DNA of 54,830 nt from an uncultured Pseudomonadales bacterium (GTDB taxonomy: Bacteria; Patescibacteriota; Microgenomatia; UBA1400; UBA12028): assembly GCA_964635905.1 (NCBI GenBank), contig CAZWPK010000004.1:91012-145841 (forward strand). Reading direction: 5' to 3'. Below are positions 4,627-18,964 of this stretch, piece by piece. The notes under the pieces are model-generated. The model saw only the letters and a list, made by a program, of their open reading frames with translations. It ran no database searches and had not been told where the DNA came from. A program made the translations under genes and the position numbers. Positions within the stretch are counted from its first letter, which is position 1. Each line of letters begins with the position of its first letter.

Positions 4627-4814
4627 ACTGGCTCCTTTCTTTAACTAATACAGAAGGGGATTGTTTTTTTTGATGGCAGAAACGAAGAGGATTACTTAAT
4701 AGAACGGTAAGGAAGAAAAGATGCAGGGAAATGTAGTGCCTTTTTATTGAGCAGTTATGCATAGATGCCAGATGAGAGTGGGAAAAAAAGATGATACAAT
4801 TGCATCCTTGCTTC

Positions 4815-4898
4815 GCCGCGGTGGTGAAACTGGCATACACGAGAGACTTAAAATCTCTTGCTCGCAAGGGCGTGAGGGTTCGACCCCCTCCCGCGGCA
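4815..4898 (+). tRNA. tRNA-Leu(TAA)
   Basis: Acceptor GCCGCGG/CCGCGGC, anticodon arm AGAGA-CTTAAAA-TCTCT, long variable arm, TTCGA T-loop; CCA not encoded. Confidence 0.95.
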
Positions 4899-4904
4899 CA
4901 TGTT

Positions 4905-4981
4905 CGGGGTGTGGCTCAGATGGCTAGAGCGCCTGCTTTGGGAGCAGGAGGTCCCCAGTTCGAGTCTGGGCACCCCGACCA
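4905..4981 (+). tRNA. tRNA-Pro(TGG)
   Basis: Acceptor CGGGGTG/CACCCCG, CCTGC-TTTGGGA-GCAGG, GTTCGAGT, ends ACCA. Confidence 0.97.
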
Positions 4982-6504
4982 TTTAAGACAAGTGGGTCTT
5001 TGAGCAGGGTATCAAAGGGTTCTTTTAGCCTGTACATCTTCACTTTTTCTTCATCAATCCATAAGTTCAAGAAAATAATTCTGACAATTTGGTCTTTGAC
5101 TTCGGGTGTGCCTGCTTTGACAGATAATCCAGCGTTTTTAGACAAGTTCAAGAAGTCTTCCAGCGTTAACACGTCCTGTTCTAGGTCAGGCATGGCTTCC
5201 TTGAGTTTGGTGATTTCTGCCTCCAGTTGGGACTTTTGATTGTCCAGTTCTTTCACTCGTTCCTCACCAATCTTTCTGACTGTCGAGCCTATTTCCTGCT
5301 TGATGACTTGGAGAGCGGTTGTTCGCAACTCATTGTCAGTAGCTTTCAGGTGTCCTTGCTTGGAGTGCAGTTCAACCTCAAGTTTGGCTTTCTGCTTAGT
5401 TAGCACGTCAGTCATTTCTTGCAGGTAAATTTGATAATCTTCCTCAGTGAAGTTGAGTCCATCCTTGAGAAACTCATACAACCAATCAAGCACAACTTTC
5501 ACTCTGACTGATTTCTTAGCTCGTTTGCACCCTGTGGTTTCACACCTGAAGTTAAGATACCGTTTGCCACTCCCACCAGTGGATGGACCAACAGTCATAT
5601 TGCCATCACAAAACGAACATTTTACAAAGGACTTAAAGGGGTAAAAAGTATAGCGGTGAGTGTTAATTGGCATCAGTCGAGTTCTAGTTTGGGTTTGGAT
5701 TTGGTAAAACTCTTCCTCACTGACCGCAGGTACAAAGTCATACTTGGTACGCAAATCAATCTGGTCATCAGCTTGTACCAATACACCAAAGTAAAACGAA
5801 TCTCGGAAGATGATACTCAAGATACGCTTGTCCATGTTCACTTTGCGTCCTGTAGCTTTAATCAAGCGGTGGTAGCCAAGAGAGTTGATTGTTTGGGCAA
5901 TTTTTTCCAGTGACTCACCTTTAAGCTTCATCTGCCATGCTTCCTTGATAAGTTCATGGTTATTACCATCAGGTTGATATCTACCAAACTCATCAATCAC
6001 ATATCCATGTTTAGGAATGTGACTCCTGCCTTCACTAGCTTTTCTGACCATCCCACGAGTCACGTCAGCAGAGAGTTTGTCTGAGTATTGTTTGGAAAGC
6101 ACAAAAGCAAGTCCCAGCATCATCAAACCATTTGCATCTCGAGTGAAGTGGTGAGTAACAAACTTTAAGTCCTTGATGATGTCCTCATCAATCATATCAA
6201 TGACTTCGCCACCTTCTTTCATGTTGCGAGCAAGGCGGTCAGGATTCCAGCACAGAATCCCATCGTATTTACCAACCTGAATATCTTTGAGCATCTGCCG
6301 AAAAACAGGTCTTTTACCAGGTTTCTTAGCGGACTTCTGTTCTGTCAGTGGAGAGCCAACAATGGTCAAATTGAGGCGTTTAGCAAGCTGGAGACACTCG
6401 GCTATTTGGTCAGGAATAGACCGAGCTTGACGCTCTGGGTCATCGGTAGATTTGCGAGCGTAGAGGACATATTTGAGCTTGGTGTGGTCAACTTCATACT
6501 CCAT
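4924..6504 (-). CDS. large serine recombinase 1 (526 aa in integrated state; last codons read antisense through tRNA-Pro)
   Basis: Resolvase catalytic YARKST..RQ..SI..Q, DRLARN, recombinase domain, Zn ribbon CSFC...CETTGC, coiled coil; ATG at 6504 matches paralog start. Confidence 0.95.
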   Translation of the reverse strand: MEYEVDHTKLKYVLYARKSTDDPERQARSIPDQIAECLQLAKRLNLTIVGSPLTEQKSAKKPGKRPVFRQMLKDIQVGKYDGILCWNPDRLARNMKEGGEVIDMIDEDIIKDLKFVTHHFTRDANGLMMLGLAFVLSKQYSDKLSADVTRGMVRKASEGRSHIPKHGYVIDEFGRYQPDGNNHELIKEAWQMKLKGESLEKIAQTINSLGYHRLIKATGRKVNMDKRILSIIFRDSFYFGVLVQADDQIDLRTKYDFVPAVSEEEFYQIQTQTRTRLMPINTHRYTFYPFKSFVKCSFCDGNMTVGPSTGGSGKRYLNFRCETTGCKRAKKSVRVKVVLDWLYEFLKDGLNFTEEDYQIYLQEMTDVLTKQKAKLEVELHSKQGHLKATDNELRTTALQVIKQEIGSTVRKIGEERVKELDNQKSQLEAEITKLKEAMPDLEQDVLTLEDFLNLSKNAGLSVKAGTPEVKDQIVRIIFLNLWIDEEKVKMYRLKEPFDTLLKDPLVLNGRGAQTRTGDLLLPKQAL

Positions 6505-6661
6505 CACACTCGATTATCCCACGAAAAAACAAAAACAGGAGTCCACACCATGCTTTTCCTGTACTCCAACCAGCCCCCCCTTGACCCGTTTCTGCCACAG
6601 CAGGGGTGGCACTACAAACTATCAAAACCTAACATTAACTAATATATAGAAAGAGCCTATA
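6505..6661 (-). promoter_or_regulatory. conserved 157-nt region upstream of LSR1 with two hairpins and a -10-like GATAAT
   Basis: Aligns by eye to 17208-17364; hairpins at 6594-6610 and 6536-6561. Confidence 0.55.
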
Positions 6662-6715
6662 GTATATGACTTTTGTGGTGATGTCACCGTACTCACTGCG
6701 TTATATAATACCTAC

Positions 6716-7162
6716 ATGGGAATCAACGAACGAACAGCCAATATTGACTTCTTGTCTTCTACATTTGATGACATACTCACAATGTATCCTGCTGAGTCAT
6801 TAAAGTTGATGTTCCGTGGTGCTAGAAATGACAACTCGCCTTCTGGTGGAAACTGGTGGTCTGAAGATGCCTATTATGCATTGGGTTGCAGCAGTGATAA
6901 CAGACTTTTTGTAACAGCTGTACCGATAGATTTAATTGCGGAGTTGCAAGAAACTAATCAACTGACTAATGAAAGCGACCACGAAGGAAACAAATGGAAA
7001 TTTAGAAGATTCAATTTACCTCATCGACAGGTTAATGATGCCGAACTGACTGAGTTACTTAGTCAAGCTCGTATAACTAAGCTAGGTGCAACGCGAGCTA
7101 TAAAAACCAGACTTGGAACACAGGCAAGAATTGATTTCTCAAAAAGTGTTATTGTCGGGTAA
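6716..7162 (+). CDS. cargo hypothetical protein, weak ADP-ribosyltransferase-like motifs
   Basis: 148-aa ORF; LMFRG...GNWWSEDAYYA pattern; no counterpart in element 2. Confidence 0.55.
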   Translation: MGINERTANIDFLSSTFDDILTMYPAESLKLMFRGARNDNSPSGGNWWSEDAYYALGCSSDNRLFVTAVPIDLIAELQETNQLTNESDHEGNKWKFRRFNLPHRQVNDAELTELLSQARITKLGATRAIKTRLGTQARIDFSKSVIVG

Positions 7163-7171
7163 ACGGCATGA

Positions 7172-7441
7172 CTACTGTTTTAACAGTTCAAACACCTTCT
7201 TCTTGATATACCTGAAAAAGGCTAAAAGCCGATTCTTCTTGAGTAAGACATACAGAATCTCACGTCCCTGACTGTCCCGCATTGCTATTGCATTTCTGAC
7301 ACCATCCTCACCGAGCTTCTGTTGCTCGTCTATAGCTTTGAGTGCCATCATGATATCAGCACGATTGGCATGAGGTCGTTTGAGCTGTTCTGTCAGTAAT
7401 CGCTTATTCAGTGCTAGGTCTTCTTCAAAGGAAAGTGCCAT
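7172..7441 (-). CDS. conserved small element protein (89 aa), candidate directionality factor/regulator
   Basis: 53 of 89 residues identical by manual alignment to 16424..16711; shared upstream GGTACAAT..CGGTCAAATTATG. Confidence 0.85.
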   Translation of the reverse strand: MALSFEEDLALNKRLLTEQLKRPHANRADIMMALKAIDEQQKLGEDGVRNAIAMRDSQGREILYVLLKKNRLLAFFRYIKKKVFELLKQ

Positions 7442-7479
7442 AATTTGACCGCTATTGTACCTTTTTTACCCGAGAAAGC

Positions 7480-7626
7480 CTAGTACAGGTACACCAACCC
7501 CGCATTGTTTTCACCACGAATGAAGTAGTCATCAGAGATATCCGATTGTGTAACAATTTGAAATGGCTTCCAAAATGCTACAATCGCATTGGCAAGGCGT
7601 TCAAAGTTTGTCGCCTTCACTCGACA
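7480..7626 (-). other. displaced C-terminal coding segment of LSR1 (CRVKATNFERLANAIVAFWK...GENNAGLVYLY*)
   Basis: Ungapped 48-codon match (21/48 identical) to 16239..16385; in frame with LSR1 across the GTCG core. Confidence 0.7.
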
Positions 7627-7660
7627 CATATCGCGTTCTTGAGAGCTTGTAAACAGCTCT
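7609..7660 (+). repeat. junction A: element-1 left arm + CGACAC core + cassette right arm
   Basis: 7609-7626 is the exact reverse complement of 16239-16256 (18 nt); 7622-7660 matches 8179-8217 at 34/39. Confidence 0.85.
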
Positions 7661-7697
7661 TGCTTCTTGTTTTTCTTCCTATAAAATATCCCTAATT

Positions 7698-8117
7698 ATG
7701 TCAAACGTTGAAGCAACTAAATCAAAGTTAGCTGGAAAACATTTCCTGGTGGTGGAAAGTGGCGATGCTGATTGGAAATTTGTATTTGGGAATTACTTTG
7801 ATGTAATGGATGCTACTTTCGACTATGTAGATGAAGAAGATTTTTTAGGATCAGGGATGGATGAGGTTGATACTTATGTAGGAAAATTTGATGGCATCGT
7901 CTTACATTTAGTAGCAGGTGGTTATTTCGATACTTATAAAGAAAAAGCTTTGGAAACAAAACTGAAAGGACTTCCAGTAGTTGTTACAGCATCAGCAACA
8001 TTTACGCCTGACGAAAAAGTAATTGAATTAAACTCACTGGGTATTGGAGTTGTAATAAAAGGCAAAGACTTTAACTTCAACTCAATTTTGGAATTGTTAG
8101 CTGCGCAGATGAGCTAA
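7698..8117 (+). CDS. stand-alone atypical receiver (CheY-like) protein
   Basis: FLVVE (b1), FDGIVLHL (b3, His at the Asp position), PVVVTAS (b4), VVIKGK (b5). Confidence 0.65.
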   Translation: MSNVEATKSKLAGKHFLVVESGDADWKFVFGNYFDVMDATFDYVDEEDFLGSGMDEVDTYVGKFDGIVLHLVAGGYFDTYKEKALETKLKGLPVVVTASATFTPDEKVIELNSLGIGVVIKGKDFNFNSILELLAAQMS

Positions 8118-8133
8118 AAACATAGCAACTTAT

Positions 8134-8217
8134 AGGATCATTGATCTGGAAGTGAGTTATTATTTCATTCCATAGATCCGACACATATTGTGTTTTTGAG
8201 AGTTTGTAAACAGCTTT
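8134..8217 (+). repeat. junction B: hairpin left arm shared with C + CGACAC + right arm shared with A
   Basis: 8134-8184 vs 8692-8742 = 46/51; 8179-8217 vs 7622-7660 = 34/39. Confidence 0.9.
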
Positions 8218-8284: not shown

Positions 8285-8683
8285 ATGTCTGCAGAAAAAC
8301 CTGTTGTAGTACTTGTCGATAACAATAAGACTTATCTCGATACAGTGGCTTTGTTTTTTCAACAAACTGGTATGCATGTGGTTTGTTTTTTATCTGATCT
8401 GGGTAGCAATACAGAAGATTTGGTAGATCGGATACAAAAGAATAGTCCCGACATTGTTGTAACAGGTGTTCGTAATCGAATCGACAGAGATGATGGAGAT
8501 ATGAGTGGGATAGTATTGGCAAATGCTCTAAAATCCAAAGGTATTAAAGTTTTAGTAACATCTTCACCAGAATACCAAGGAATAGCTGAGCAAAATGGTT
8601 TACCTTTTATCGGAAAGCATCTTGGAGCACCTGAGTTTGTCAGTCATATTCAAGCACTTATAGGTCTATCCTTTAAATCATAA
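8285..8683 (+). CDS. stand-alone atypical receiver (CheY-like) protein
   Basis: VVLVDNN (b1), SPDIVVTGV (Gly at the Asp position), MSGIVLANALK, VLVTSS, FIGK. Confidence 0.75.
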   Translation: MSAEKPVVVLVDNNKTYLDTVALFFQQTGMHVVCFLSDLGSNTEDLVDRIQKNSPDIVVTGVRNRIDRDDGDMSGIVLANALKSKGIKVLVTSSPEYQGIAEQNGLPFIGKHLGAPEFVSHIQALIGLSFKS

Positions 8684-8691
8684 AATGCTAA

Positions 8692-8756
8692 AGGACTACT
8701 GATCTGGAAGTGAGTTACTATTTCATTCCATAGTTCCGACACTTTTGATATTCTTG
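8692..8756 (+). repeat. junction C: hairpin left arm + CGACAC + diverged right arm
   Basis: 46/51 to junction B left arm; TTCTTG at the same offset after the core as in junction A. Confidence 0.85.
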
Positions 8757-8903
8757 GAAAATCCTGTTAGATTTGACTACGATTACCATACGCTTATAAT
8801 CAGTGCTGACTCTCCTAACATACTAGAAGTAGTCAAGATGCCATTAATAAAGTGGTGATCAAAATACCAATTGTTCAAATTTTTGTTTAAGGAGATTTCT
8901 CAT

Positions 8904-9341
8904 ATGGGCCCAGTAGAACGTAGAGACGTCACAATTGTAGATACGAACGTTGACCCGAGACTGGCAGAGGTCACTCAGGTAACTATACTAGAACAACTCA
9001 ATGATCGTAAATTTCTTGAAGAACTAATTGCTCAAGGAAGAATTGTCTCTCACGAATTCGGACAGCAGGGGTGGGCAGCCGATATGCGACCTGTGTGCAG
9101 AGTGACGATCTCTCCTATTTCCGAACAACACTATTCTAGAAATGAGGAAGATAATCCTTATGATAGGAGTATCATCTGCGTAATAGTCGATGGAAAAAAA
9201 TATCCTTGCACTACATTCGTTGTCGATGAAGAAATTGGAACCTTTATTAGAGGCATGCTTAGAAGGCGACGTCTTTTGAAGCCTTTCAAAGAGTTTGCTT
9301 CGGGTCTGAAAGATGGACTGCGTTCTGCATTCCGAGGTTAA
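8904..9341 (+). CDS. hypothetical protein
   Basis: ORF 8871..9341; ATG 8904 preceded by AAGGAG. Confidence 0.65.
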   Translation: MGPVERRDVTIVDTNVDPRLAEVTQVTILEQLNDRKFLEELIAQGRIVSHEFGQQGWAADMRPVCRVTISPISEQHYSRNEEDNPYDRSIICVIVDGKKYPCTTFVVDEEIGTFIRGMLRRRRLLKPFKEFASGLKDGLRSAFRG

Positions 9342-16204: not shown

Positions 16205-16271
16205 GAGAGGATGTTTATGCCCTCGAAAGCGTGCTCTATGTCGAGTGAAGGCGACAGACCTTGAACGCCTT
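16205..16271 (-). repeat. junction D: element-2 left arm + CGAC core + diverged cassette-type right arm
   Basis: Minus strand AAGGCG-N12-CGCCTT-CACT-CGACA followed by GAGGGCATAAACATCCTC, similar to GAGAGCTTGTAAACAGCTC of junction A. Confidence 0.75.
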
Positions 16272-16385
16272 ACAGAAGTGATTTTAGCACGCTGGCAGAG
16301 AGTCGAGTTCACTATTCCCGAATTGATGAATACTGATAACTTCACTCATGGTGAAAATAAGATAGGGCTATCGTATGTGTACTAG
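16239..16385 (+). other. displaced C-terminal coding segment of LSR2 (CRVKATDLERLTEVILARW...GENKIGLSYVY*)
   Basis: Ungapped homolog of 7480..7626; the Met of copy 1 is CTA here; in frame with LSR2 across GTCG. Confidence 0.7.
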
Positions 16386-16423
16386 GATTACTCGACGGAA
16401 ACGGGTACAATGACGGTCAAATT

Positions 16424-16711
16424 ATGCCATCCACACCAGAGGAGAGACTAGCTGAAAACAAGCGATTATTACAGGAGATGCTCAAGAATCCTAAGTATCA
16501 GCGGGCGGAACTTGTCGAAGCACTCAAAGCCGTAAACGAGGAACAAGCTCTCGGTGTCGATGCTGTCCGTAACGCGATAGCCATGCGTAATGCGAAAGGA
16601 CAAGAGATTTTGTATATGCTCCTCAAGAAAAACCGAGTCCTCACCCTTTTCCATAAGATAAAGAAGTGGGTCTTTGAACTAGTGTATAATATGCCTATTA
16701 AATCAAAATAA
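16424..16711 (+). CDS. conserved small element protein (95 aa), candidate directionality factor/regulator
   Basis: Paralog of 7172..7441 (NKRLL, ALKA, VRNAIAMR, EILY.LLKKNR). Confidence 0.85.
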   Translation: MPSTPEERLAENKRLLQEMLKNPKYQRAELVEALKAVNEEQALGVDAVRNAIAMRNAKGQEILYMLLKKNRVLTLFHKIKKWVFELVYNMPIKSK

Positions 16712-16720
16712 GGAGCCAAT

Positions 16721-17173
16721 ATGTCAGAAATCCTTTCAGATTTTGGTAAAGAAGCAAATGAGACACCCAAAGTGACAGCAGATGCTCAACCGCAACCAGC
16801 TACAATTTCTCCAAATAGATTGCAGAGCATTGCAGACTTGATGGCTCAACCTGCTGAATCTACGGATACTCCTGTTGCGAAGACTGAGACACCGAAAGCA
16901 GAAATCTCTGAAGTTTTAGTTCTCAAGCAAGGTTTGAATGCTGTCATAATGCCTGAACTTAGAGACGTATTTAAAGACGAGAGATTTGGTGACTCATTTG
17001 GTGACGTGAGTGCAGAGGTTGCAAGAGATAGGCTCCAAAAGTTTCTTGATGAAATCCAAAAACAAGGTGGTAAAGTCCTTTCTACTGTTAGCCAAATGAC
17101 CAATGAAAATCCTAGTGAAATGAATGGTGATGACCCAAAGCTGACTACGTTCTTTATAGTAGAAAAATCGTAA
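16721..17173 (+). CDS. cargo hypothetical protein
   Basis: 150-aa ORF with AGGAG ribosome-binding site; Pro/Ala/Thr-rich N-terminus. Confidence 0.7.
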   Translation: MSEILSDFGKEANETPKVTADAQPQPATISPNRLQSIADLMAQPAESTDTPVAKTETPKAEISEVLVLKQGLNAVIMPELRDVFKDERFGDSFGDVSAEVARDRLQKFLDEIQKQGGKVLSTVSQMTNENPSEMNGDDPKLTTFFIVEKS

Positions 17174-17207
17174 AGACTTACGCTAAAGTAGGTAGCATCT
17201 TTTATGT

Positions 17208-17364
17208 TATAGGGCTACATTCTCCTGTTAGGTATTGTTAGATGTTTGAAGTCTCTAGCCCTACCCCTCTTGTGGCTAAAACACCCTAAACCAGTGGCTT
17301 TTGCTATAGGAAGAGCGTGGTGTGCATACCTGATTTTGTTTTTCCTAGTAGTACAATCAGCGGT
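17208..17364 (+). promoter_or_regulatory. conserved 157-nt region upstream of LSR2 with hairpins and -10 TACAAT
   Basis: Aligns to 6505-6661; TACAAT 17352-17357, 7 nt before ATG. Confidence 0.55.
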
Positions 17365-18945
17365 ATGGATTACGAAGTGGATACCTCCAAACTCAAATAC
17401 GTCATGTATGTCCGTAAGAGTACCGATGACCCAGAGCGCCAAGCTCGCTCCATCCCCGACCAGATTGCGGAGTGCCAGGAGCTCGCTAAACGCCTCAATC
17501 TTACTATCGTTGGGAGGCCTATTGAGGAGACCAAATCAGCCAAGAAACCTGGGAAGCGTCCATTGTTTCGGCAGATGCTTAGAGACCTGACGGCTGGTAA
17601 ATATGACGGTATCCTTTGTTGGAATCCTGACCGCCTGGCCCGAAATATGCGTGAGGGTGGTGAAGTCATCGACATGATTGATGAAGACATCATCAAGGAC
17701 TTAAAGTTTGTAACACACCACTTCACCAAGGATGCAAACGGCTTGATGCTTCTGGGACTTGCCTTTGTCCTCTCCAAGCAATACAGCGACAAATTATCAC
17801 AAGACGTGACTCGTGGGATGGTCCGTAAAGCCAGTGAAGGTCGAAGCCATATACCCAAGCATGGATATGTCATTGATGACAACGGGAGATATCAGCCAGA
17901 TGGACCGAACTTTGACCTCATCAGACAGGCCTGGCAGATGAAATTACACGGTGAGCCACTCGAAAAGATTTCCAATACTATCAATGGTCTTGGGTATCAT
18001 CGCCTCATCAAGTCCACAGGTCGTAAGGTCAATATGGACAAGAGAATCTTGAGTGAATTATTCCATGACTCCTTCTACTTTGGGATGTTGGAGCAAGCGA
18101 GTGAGACGGTTGACCTGCGCACCAAATATGACTTTGTTCCTGCTGTGACCGAGCAAGAGTATGCTCAAGTCCAAGCTCTGACCAGAAGCCGTATCATCCC
18201 ACTCGTCTCACATCGCTTTACCTTCTACCCATTCAAGACGTTTGTTCGCTGTGCATTCTGTGACAACAATATGACTGTTGGTCCTTCGACTGGGAGTACA
18301 GGCAAACGGTACTTAAACTTTCGCTGTGAGACTCCAGAGTGCAAACGTATCAAGAAATCTGTACGGGTAAAAGTAGTCCTCGATTGGTTGTATGCGTTTC
18401 TCGCTGGTGGACTCAACTTCACCGAGGCAGATTACAAACAATATCTAGAGGAGATGACAGATGTCATTACCAAGCAACGAGCGACGCTTGAAGGTGAACT
18501 GCACGCCAAACAAGGATTACTCAAGACGACTGATGCCGAACTCAGGACCACTGCCCTCCAAGTCATCAAACAAGAAGAAGATTCAACTGTCAGACGTATC
18601 GGTGAGGAGCACGTCAAGGAACTGGAGCAACAGAAAGCGCAGCTAGAGACAGAGATTGCCTCTATCAAACAGACCATGCCTGATGTTGCACAGGATGCAC
18701 TTACCTTAGAAGATTTCTTGAACTTGTCAAAGAATGCGGCAGAATCAGTCAAAGCAGGCACTCCAGAAGTCAAAGACCAAATTGTCAGAATTATCTTCTT
18801 GAACTTATGGATTGATGAAGAAAAAGTAACGAAATATCAGGCTAAAGAGCCGTTTCATTCCCTGCTTGCTAACAGGCAACTACCTACTAGTCGGGGTGAC
18901 TGGACTCGAACCAGCGACCTCTTGCACCCCATGCAAGCGCGCTAG
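17365..18945 (+). CDS. large serine recombinase 2 (526 aa in integrated state; tail read antisense through tRNA-Pro(GGG))
   Basis: YVRKST catalytic motif, CAFC...CETPEC Zn ribbon; roughly 75-80% identical to LSR1 by eye, same length. Confidence 0.95.
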   Translation: MDYEVDTSKLKYVMYVRKSTDDPERQARSIPDQIAECQELAKRLNLTIVGRPIEETKSAKKPGKRPLFRQMLRDLTAGKYDGILCWNPDRLARNMREGGEVIDMIDEDIIKDLKFVTHHFTKDANGLMLLGLAFVLSKQYSDKLSQDVTRGMVRKASEGRSHIPKHGYVIDDNGRYQPDGPNFDLIRQAWQMKLHGEPLEKISNTINGLGYHRLIKSTGRKVNMDKRILSELFHDSFYFGMLEQASETVDLRTKYDFVPAVTEQEYAQVQALTRSRIIPLVSHRFTFYPFKTFVRCAFCDNNMTVGPSTGSTGKRYLNFRCETPECKRIKKSVRVKVVLDWLYAFLAGGLNFTEADYKQYLEEMTDVITKQRATLEGELHAKQGLLKTTDAELRTTALQVIKQEEDSTVRRIGEEHVKELEQQKAQLETEIASIKQTMPDVAQDALTLEDFLNLSKNAAESVKAGTPEVKDQIVRIIFLNLWIDEEKVTKYQAKEPFHSLLANRQLPTSRGDWTRTSDLLHPMQAR

Positions 18946-18964
18946 CCAACTGCGCTACACCCCG
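18891..18964 (-). tRNA. tRNA-Pro(GGG)
   Basis: Minus strand CGGGGTG/CACCCCG, CTTGC-ATGGGGT-GCAAG, GTTCGAGT; CCA not encoded. Confidence 0.96.

Follow-up and report, generated by a model that had tools for sequence, protein, structure and literature searches.

Sites II and III of the Tn3 and gamma-delta res loci are extra resolvase sites, which are confined to one flank of the crossover site, no more than about 120 bp away, and shape synapse and directionality. The enhancer of Hin and Gin is about 60 bp in length and is located about 100 bp from the crossover site, and in the integration-dependent immunity of mycobacteriophages the recombination site lies inside a gene of the element. The enhancer (sis) sits on the hin gene, according to PMC9368917, and in SSV-type archaeal integrases attP lies inside the int open reading frame (ORF), so that integration splits the gene (PMC7253208). 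Regarding the large serine integrases, the zinc-ribbon-domain (ZD) motif shows a 5-bp offset between attP and attB, its positions for the LI integrase being 16-24 in attP and 11-19 in attB (Rutherford et al., PMC3783163), and the P' and B' half-sites of the A118 integrase showed no binding when alone (PMC3556126). The locus described here lies in a stretch of 54,830 nucleotides (the window) of the genome of an uncultured bacterium of the Patescibacteriota (GenBank assembly GCA_964635905.1, contig CAZWPK010000004.1, positions 91,012 to 145,841); it comprises two small integrative elements, A and B, each with a large serine recombinase (LSR) gene, LSR-A and LSR-B. A 62-nt block shared by the two genes is regarded here, with moderate confidence and on comparative sequence evidence, as a cis-acting DNA element embedded in the LSR coding sequence, in which two motif copies, M1 and M2, are probably accessory recombinase-binding half-sites.

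The conserved block and its motif

The block is located at 5042..5103 (-) inside the LSR-A ORF and at 18766..18827 (+) inside the LSR-B ORF, and encodes EVKDQIVRIIFLNLWIDEEK(V). Its near-identity in the two genes, pointed out in the initial annotation, was recovered: the copies differ at 1 of 62 nt (ATT/ATC, both Ile), and in both elements 62 nt separate the end of the block from the common crossover core GTCG, that is, about as close to the core as had been described. Over 527 aligned codons the paralogs showed a DNA identity of 72.9% and a protein identity of 77.6%. The synonymous divergence reported for the remainder of the genes was likewise seen, with 199 of the 393 degenerate codons for the same amino acid (50.6%) identical gene-wide versus 18 of 19 in the block; the equally conserved control peptide RKSTDDPERQARSIPDQIAEC differed at 12 of its 21 codons. 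The block contains both of the longest exact runs of the paralog pair (32 and 29 nt); the next had lengths of 26 and 21 nt. Other equally long invariant blocks were looked for along the paralogs and none was found; among the 62-nt windows not overlapping the block, the best had 5 mismatches (6207-6146) and the next 10, the gene-wide mean being 16.8. When the labels identical and non-identical were shuffled over the 382 codons outside the tRNA overlap, a value of 18 of 19 was reached in 434 of 100000 shuffles.

The comparison of synonymous divergence with homologs from other genomes, which the initial annotation had proposed, was carried out with sliding windows. An LSR search over 286 genomes of the same order yielded matches at E<=1e-30 in 116 of them. 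The homolog set consisted of 31 genes aligning over most of the protein (34-100% identity), the two genes of the window included; a close group of seven genes was formed by the window pair and L006-L010, the latter from four other genomes in three families. The fraction of identical codons among pairs encoding the same amino acid was determined in windows of 20 codons. In the block window it was 0.87 for the seven close genes (0.55 gene-wide), 0.70 for a set of 15 genes (0.46 gene-wide) and 0.63-0.68 for eight genes of about 50% identity (0.43 gene-wide). In all three gene sets the block was the window of highest synonymous constraint outside the tRNA overlap; normal synonymous variation was thus not seen there. 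The second most similar island of the paralogs, at 6146-6207 (-) in the catalytic domain (IDMIDEDIIKDLKF), contains a 26-nt exact run (6183-6158); its synonymous identity was raised in the close group (0.71) and much less so in distant homologs.

Within the close group, A-type genes (L001, L006 and L007) and B-type genes (L002 and L008), which come from four genomes, differ in the block at 1 to 5 of 63 nt, compared with 12-29% in the rest of the gene. Between L006 and L008, which come from different genomes with one copy each, a single difference was found in 63 nt, and between L001 and L007 there were two, as many as between A and B over the same 21 codons. Because these pairs from different genomes are equally similar, the pair in the window is not special. 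On both sides of the block the flanking sequence keeps its A-type or B-type lineage character.

The constrained core of the region is TTY-NYG-AAC, which occurs in two direct copies 81-84 nt apart. M2 (TTCTTGAAC, codons F-L-N) is found at the centre of the block, at 5065..5073 (-) in element A and 18796..18804 (+) in element B, and M1 (TTCTTGAAC) lies upstream of it (81 nt in element A), at 5146..5154 (-) and 18715..18723 (+), respectively. Over the last 160 codons of the 31 homologs, the entropy at the third codon position was about 1.5-2.0 bits in most columns, with values of 0.21 and 0 bits at the two adjacent codons of M2, 0.71 at the equivalent pair of M1 and 0.35 at one Lys codon. Of the 31 homologs (34-100% identity), all have the sequence YGAAC at M1 and 30 have it at M2. 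A search across the class and a metagenome scan for close relatives, the latter of which yielded only 2 loci, added 13 homologs, all of them with YGAAC at both sites and the 81-nt spacing; the totals are 44/44 for M1 and 43/44 for M2.

The Leu codon of M2 is TTG in 21 of 21 cases (15% of the Leu codons elsewhere in the same genes), the Ser codon found in its place is TCG in 7 of 8 (baseline 6.8%), and the Asn codon is AAC in 31 of 31 (baseline 44%). The third-position G of M2 is retained with Leu, Ser, Thr and Ala codons. At M1, six genes encode the peptide F-x-E instead of F-L-N and retain GAAC with its register shifted by one base (xxC GAA Cxx). Since the motif survives both amino-acid changes and a shifted register, selection evidently acts on the bases and not on the meaning of the codons. 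The base following GAAC was the same at M1 and M2 in 23 of 31 homologs (15.6 expected), a suggestive count that is uncorrected for relatedness and is not relied on here.

Attachment sites and the exchanged tail

The 3' end of each LSR ORF enters the antisense strand of a tRNA-Pro gene. In the integrated form, the ORF of LSR-A extends over 4924..6507 (-), with a likely start at ATG 6504 and the last ~18 codons antisense to tRNA-Pro, and that of LSR-B over 17317..18945 (+), with a likely start at ATG 17365. The target (B arm) of element A is a tRNA-Pro(UGG) gene (4905..4981 (+)), whose T-loop DNA has CTCGAAC at 4964-4958 (-); that of element B is a tRNA-Pro(GGG) gene (18890..18964 (-)) with CTCGAAC at 18905-18911 (+). 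Among 22 loci scanned for a tRNA gene next to the LSR gene, tRNA-Pro was found in 19, tRNA-Val in 1 and none in 2; the use of tRNA-Pro genes as targets is a difference from the described large serine integrases. The core GTCG is located at the tRNA-side junction (attL) at 4976..4979 (-) in element A and 18890..18893 (+) in element B. At the far junction (attR) it is located at 7622..7625 (-) in element A, followed by a P arm with TTTGAAC at 7605-7599, and at 16240..16243 (+) in element B, followed by a P arm with CTTGAAC at 16260-16266. The elements span 4976-7625 (A) and 16240-18893 (B), about 2.65 kb each.

At the far end, an identical 16-mer (GTCG and 12 further bases) followed by YTTGAAC was found in 7/7 close elements, and the chromosomal flank beyond the core is different in every genome of the close group. 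The P arm has the form GTCG-N17-TYGAAC, its motif ending 27 nt from the start of the core, and the B arm, i.e. the T-loop DNA of the tRNA gene, the form GTCG-N12-TCGAAC, its motif ending at 22 nt; the distal TYGAAC motif of the B arm is therefore nearer to the core, by 5 bp, than that of the P arm. A common distal motif with a 5-bp offset between the P and B arms is a likeness to the large serine integrases A118/LI, Bxb1 and phiC31. Neither the P' arm of the element nor the B' arm of the chromosome is conserved, which resembles A118, where each site pairs a strong half-site with a weak one. The pattern GTCG-N17-TYGAAC was also present in the uninterrupted attP of the homolog L019 and in 4 of 10 distant loci; in the other six, a search with the P-arm pattern gave no candidate starting with GTCG.

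Relative to the core, M1 and M2 are located on the P' side at ~166 and ~85 nt, in the same orientation as the P-arm copy of the motif. A fourth copy, TTTGAAC (codons F-E-L), is found at 7192-7186 (-) near the 3' end of a small gene of element A (89 aa; 7172..7441 (-); no family match), and TTTGAAC recurs at 16673-16679 (+) near the 3' end of the homologous gene of element B (95 aa; 16424..16711 (+)). This sense copy occurs in 7/7 close elements, six of them having it at +433 and the seventh at +424, and each of four distant elements has a sense copy at +363 to +451. Both elements of the window carry every motif copy on the LSR-sense strand. Antisense copies were absent from 6/7 close elements, and the four distant elements had 22 sense versus 5 antisense copies. 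The conserved extra copies stand outside the attP of about 50 bp; whereas the sites of the described large serine integrases are self-contained, direct in-gene copies occur here at ~85, ~166 and ~400 nt from the core.

Two other origins considered for the motif copies were rejected. A pseudo-att site around M2 (inverted GTCAAAG...CTTGAAC, 36 nt) has a spacing at odds with the geometry of both attP and attB, and was dropped as its upstream member varies at the third base among close homologs. A relic tRNA gene as the source of M1 and M2 received no support from ARAGORN or Rfam, which reported nothing at this place, and the region aligns with phrog_95 up to residue 490.

The attP core lies within the LSR ORF, and in 7/7 close elements the LSR frame extends over a further 47 codons at the far end. 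This detached tail, with its stop codon, is located at 7480..7623 (-) in element A (codons 7623-7483, which keep the LSR frame when read across the core) and at 16242..16385 (+) in element B (codons 16242-16382). The tail peptide shows protein-like conservation and a common stop among the seven close elements; tblastn searches with three tail peptides gave no convincing matches in distant homologs beyond these seven. Because the core lies within the ORF and the detached tail is in frame at the far end, integration replaces the conserved 47-residue tail by about 18 residues from the tRNA antisense strand. An ORF that runs across attP, and from which integration removes a conserved 47-aa tail, is a likeness to the SSV-type integrases. 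The SSV-type and mycobacteriophage systems differ in employing tyrosine recombinases, whereas the recombinase here is of the serine type, its catalytic and DNA-binding body is kept whole and only the C-terminal tail is exchanged. Literature searches at the level of listings and abstracts returned no report on serine integrases with attP in the ORF, nor on such elements in the candidate phyla radiation (CPR)/Patescibacteria.

An unintegrated arrangement is suggested by L019, which makes up the whole of a 3515-nt contig of genome G282 without a tRNA gene, and in which the LSR ORF passes through the site without interruption; a terminal overlap as proof of circularity was not found in this contig. 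The LSR of L019 is read in two frames, with breaks near residues 324-326, and may be frameshifted or misassembled. A 154-nt metagenome contig from run X8 (7497-7625) has an A-like P arm up to 7625 and an attP-type junction, past which it is close to the reverse complement of the P' arm of element B. This contig could represent an attP junction of hybrid origin, a hybrid element in circular form or the outcome of a site-specific inversion that recombined the far junction of A with the tRNA-side junction of B. Runs X4-X6, for which only assembled contigs were covered, showed no circular junction of element A itself, a result that says nothing about its absence. A contig from X5 that joins 4979 to 8178 was considered as an empty site and rejected as too weak, having 35 letters on its shorter side.

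The two elements and their genes

The genome around the window has a size of 1.17 Mb in 8 contigs and is 99% complete. The two LSR genes of the window are inverted relative to each other, and the 8.6 kb separating the elements hold ordinary genes (holA-like, phosphoglucomutase, nucleotidyl transferase, HAD phosphatase and sugar isomerases). The resolvase-type catalytic domain PF00239 was matched with 82.6 and 83.0 bits in the paralogs (cut-off 23.3), which show the catalytic-serine motif in the forms YARKSTDD and YVRKSTDD. The recombinase domain PF07508 was above its cut-off of 21.1 in LSR-A only (33.3 bits), and the Zn ribbon profile scored 20.5 and 19.2 bits, under its cut-off of 25.3. Matches were further obtained to the integrase family phrog_95 (E 2e-62, residues 6-490) and to SPbeta integrase chains (E 7e-6, alignment over residues 14-430).

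The middle genes of the elements differ: 6716-7162 (+) in A encodes 148 aa and 16721-17173 (+) in B encodes 150 aa, the two genes being on opposite strands relative to their own LSR genes and without family match. The stretch between the small gene and the LSR gene looks like a variable cargo slot. Family searches with the 89/95-aa and the 148/150-aa proteins returned nothing usable. An intergenic unit of about 90 nt (a hairpin, then CCGACAC...) was observed in three direct copies at 7567-7658, 8117-8215 and 8675-8762, which stand before the small genes 7698-8117, 8285-8683 and 8871-9341; one of the copies forms the chromosomal flank at the far junction of element A.

Interpretation and alternative explanations

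The constraint, the motif, its copies and the geometry of the att sites are direct observations. As an explanation we favour purifying selection on the DNA itself, added to the selection on the protein, in a family of LSR genes that target tRNA-Pro and reside on small integrative elements of CPR bacteria. Such selection would account for paralogs that are 27% diverged and yet near-identical in the block. As the binder we infer the DNA-binding domain of the LSR, for which M1, M2 and the fourth copy (~+400) would be extra half-site-like sites, because TYGAAC also ends both conserved att half-sites. As to the effect of binding, M1 and M2, placed beside the poorly conserved P' arm, may recruit or arrange the recombinase at attP or attL and raise its local occupancy; alternatively, they might serve the LSR in regulating its own gene.

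Among known arrangements, the Hin/Gin enhancer is similar in being a cis element within the coding sequence of the serine recombinase itself and near the crossover. It differs in binding Fis and serving small invertases, whereas the motif here is that of the att arms of the recombinase, and nothing at this locus shows Fis-type sites or a Fis homolog. The additional sites of res are inverted half-site pairs for dimers, whereas single direct copies and a large serine integrase are found here. What can be compared with res and the enhancer is the position within the recombinase ORF, 62-190 nt from the core, and the sequence constraint.

Several points weigh against a cis-acting element made up of recombinase half-sites. 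M1 and M2 are single direct copies and not inverted pairs like real recombinase dimer sites, and the sequence 27 nt upstream of them is unlike the rest of the P arm. With its 6-9 nt the motif is short, and its binder is assigned from motif identity alone. Throughout the close group the 62 nt are conserved as a whole, far beyond a 9-nt motif, which this explanation leaves unaccounted for. The homologs are mutually related and the elements mobile, so the counts given above are not independent. For known serine integrases, finally, an attP of about 50 bp and an attB of about 40 bp suffice without accessory sites, as reported for A118 (PMC3556126).

The main rival is a use of the same bases at the RNA level, followed by homogenisation among elements and then by conversion within the genome. 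An RNA-level role, which we consider unlikely, would affect translation or stability of the LSR mRNA or provide a protein-binding site on it, or would be exerted by an antisense transcript from tRNA-Pro carrying a T-loop-like GTTCRAG. It would be in keeping with the position of all motif copies on the transcribed sense strand of genes, and the antisense reading does resemble tRNA T-loop sequence. For 195 nt of 14 homologs (L018, which has a 9-nt insertion, was left out), however, RNAalifold detected neither a conserved structure nor covariation on either strand (-0.26 and 0 kcal/mol). A search of 4700-7800 against Rfam (E<=1) returned two tRNAs and one sub-threshold chance match only, and no promoter-like or terminator-like site was seen in 4800-5400. 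Moreover, the P arm and the tRNA gene also carry the motif, and there a role in DNA recombination is the simplest reading.

A somewhat smaller probability is given to mosaic homogenisation, by which the segment would have been exchanged among elements across hosts, with selection only on the 9-nt motif. That the elements move between families is indicated by LSRs of 75-91% identity in families f1, f14 and f17; the X8 contig, with its A-like P arm and B-like P' sequence, may be a hybrid junction, and L006 and L008, although of different clades, both have GTT and CGA in the block. Against this, the clades of the seven close genes are congruent upstream, downstream and in the tail, and the block is also the top window in the eight distant genes, where sweeps cannot explain it. 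Segment exchange may add to the conservation within the close group.

Recent gene conversion between the inverted paralogs of this genome, or inversion by homologous exchange, was one of the two alternatives offered in the initial annotation and is improbable. The A-B pair taken alone is an outlier in the label shuffle, A and B have the same codons (GTC, GTC and AGA) at the three positions of the block that are most variable among close homologs, and RecA is encoded right beside element B. The block is, however, just as conserved between elements of different genomes as within this one, including those of L006 and L008 with a single copy each, and conversion is for that reason not supported. 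Because the sequence on both sides of the block is lineage-specific, neither exchange nor inversion has passed through it. A 62-nt tract in DNA of 73% identity is in addition short for RecA-driven conversion. The other alternative of that annotation, a DNA site embedded in the ORF, has gained comparative evidence.

The two weakest explanations are both highly improbable. An overlapping gene in another frame or strand could constrain synonymous sites, and one antisense frame is open across the 135-nt region in 12 of 15 homologs (ORF 5000-5239 (+) in the window), but it has a stop in the other three, including 2 of the 7 close genes, the antisense ORF of element B lies elsewhere (18432-18773), and the constraint sits in a motif of 5-9 nt and is not spread along a frame. 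Chance, or the usual codon bias acting on a peptide of high conservation, in genes where AAA, ATT and GAA are common codons, is contradicted by the near-invariance at M1 and M2 of codons that are not preferred (TTG, TCG and AAC), by the retention of GAAC in the shifted register and by the synonymous differences in the control peptide.

Returning to the cis-acting element, a wider and more tentative proposal, which we hold to be possible and not likely, is that this CPR-wide LSR family does not use a minimal attP alone, and instead uses four same-strand copies of the ZD motif (at about -166, -85, +20 and +400 nt). Two of the copies would occupy synonymous positions of the recombinase's own gene, and the array would be coupled to an attP in the ORF that switches the C-terminus, providing a control of directionality or expression that depends on accessory sites and on the state of integration.

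What appears to be new here is the att recognition of a serine integrase with embedded extra motif copies, together with an attP in the ORF. Serine integrases are prized in biology and genome engineering for needing two short sites and no accessory DNA. If the proposed explanation is true, a widespread family with extra motif copies beside attP would represent a different control of serine integrases, and would provide a group of integrases that target tRNA-Pro and have readable site rules. The locus would also be a natural case of dual coding, in which protein sequence and a DNA signal are written in the same bases and the motif outlasts changes of amino acid and register.

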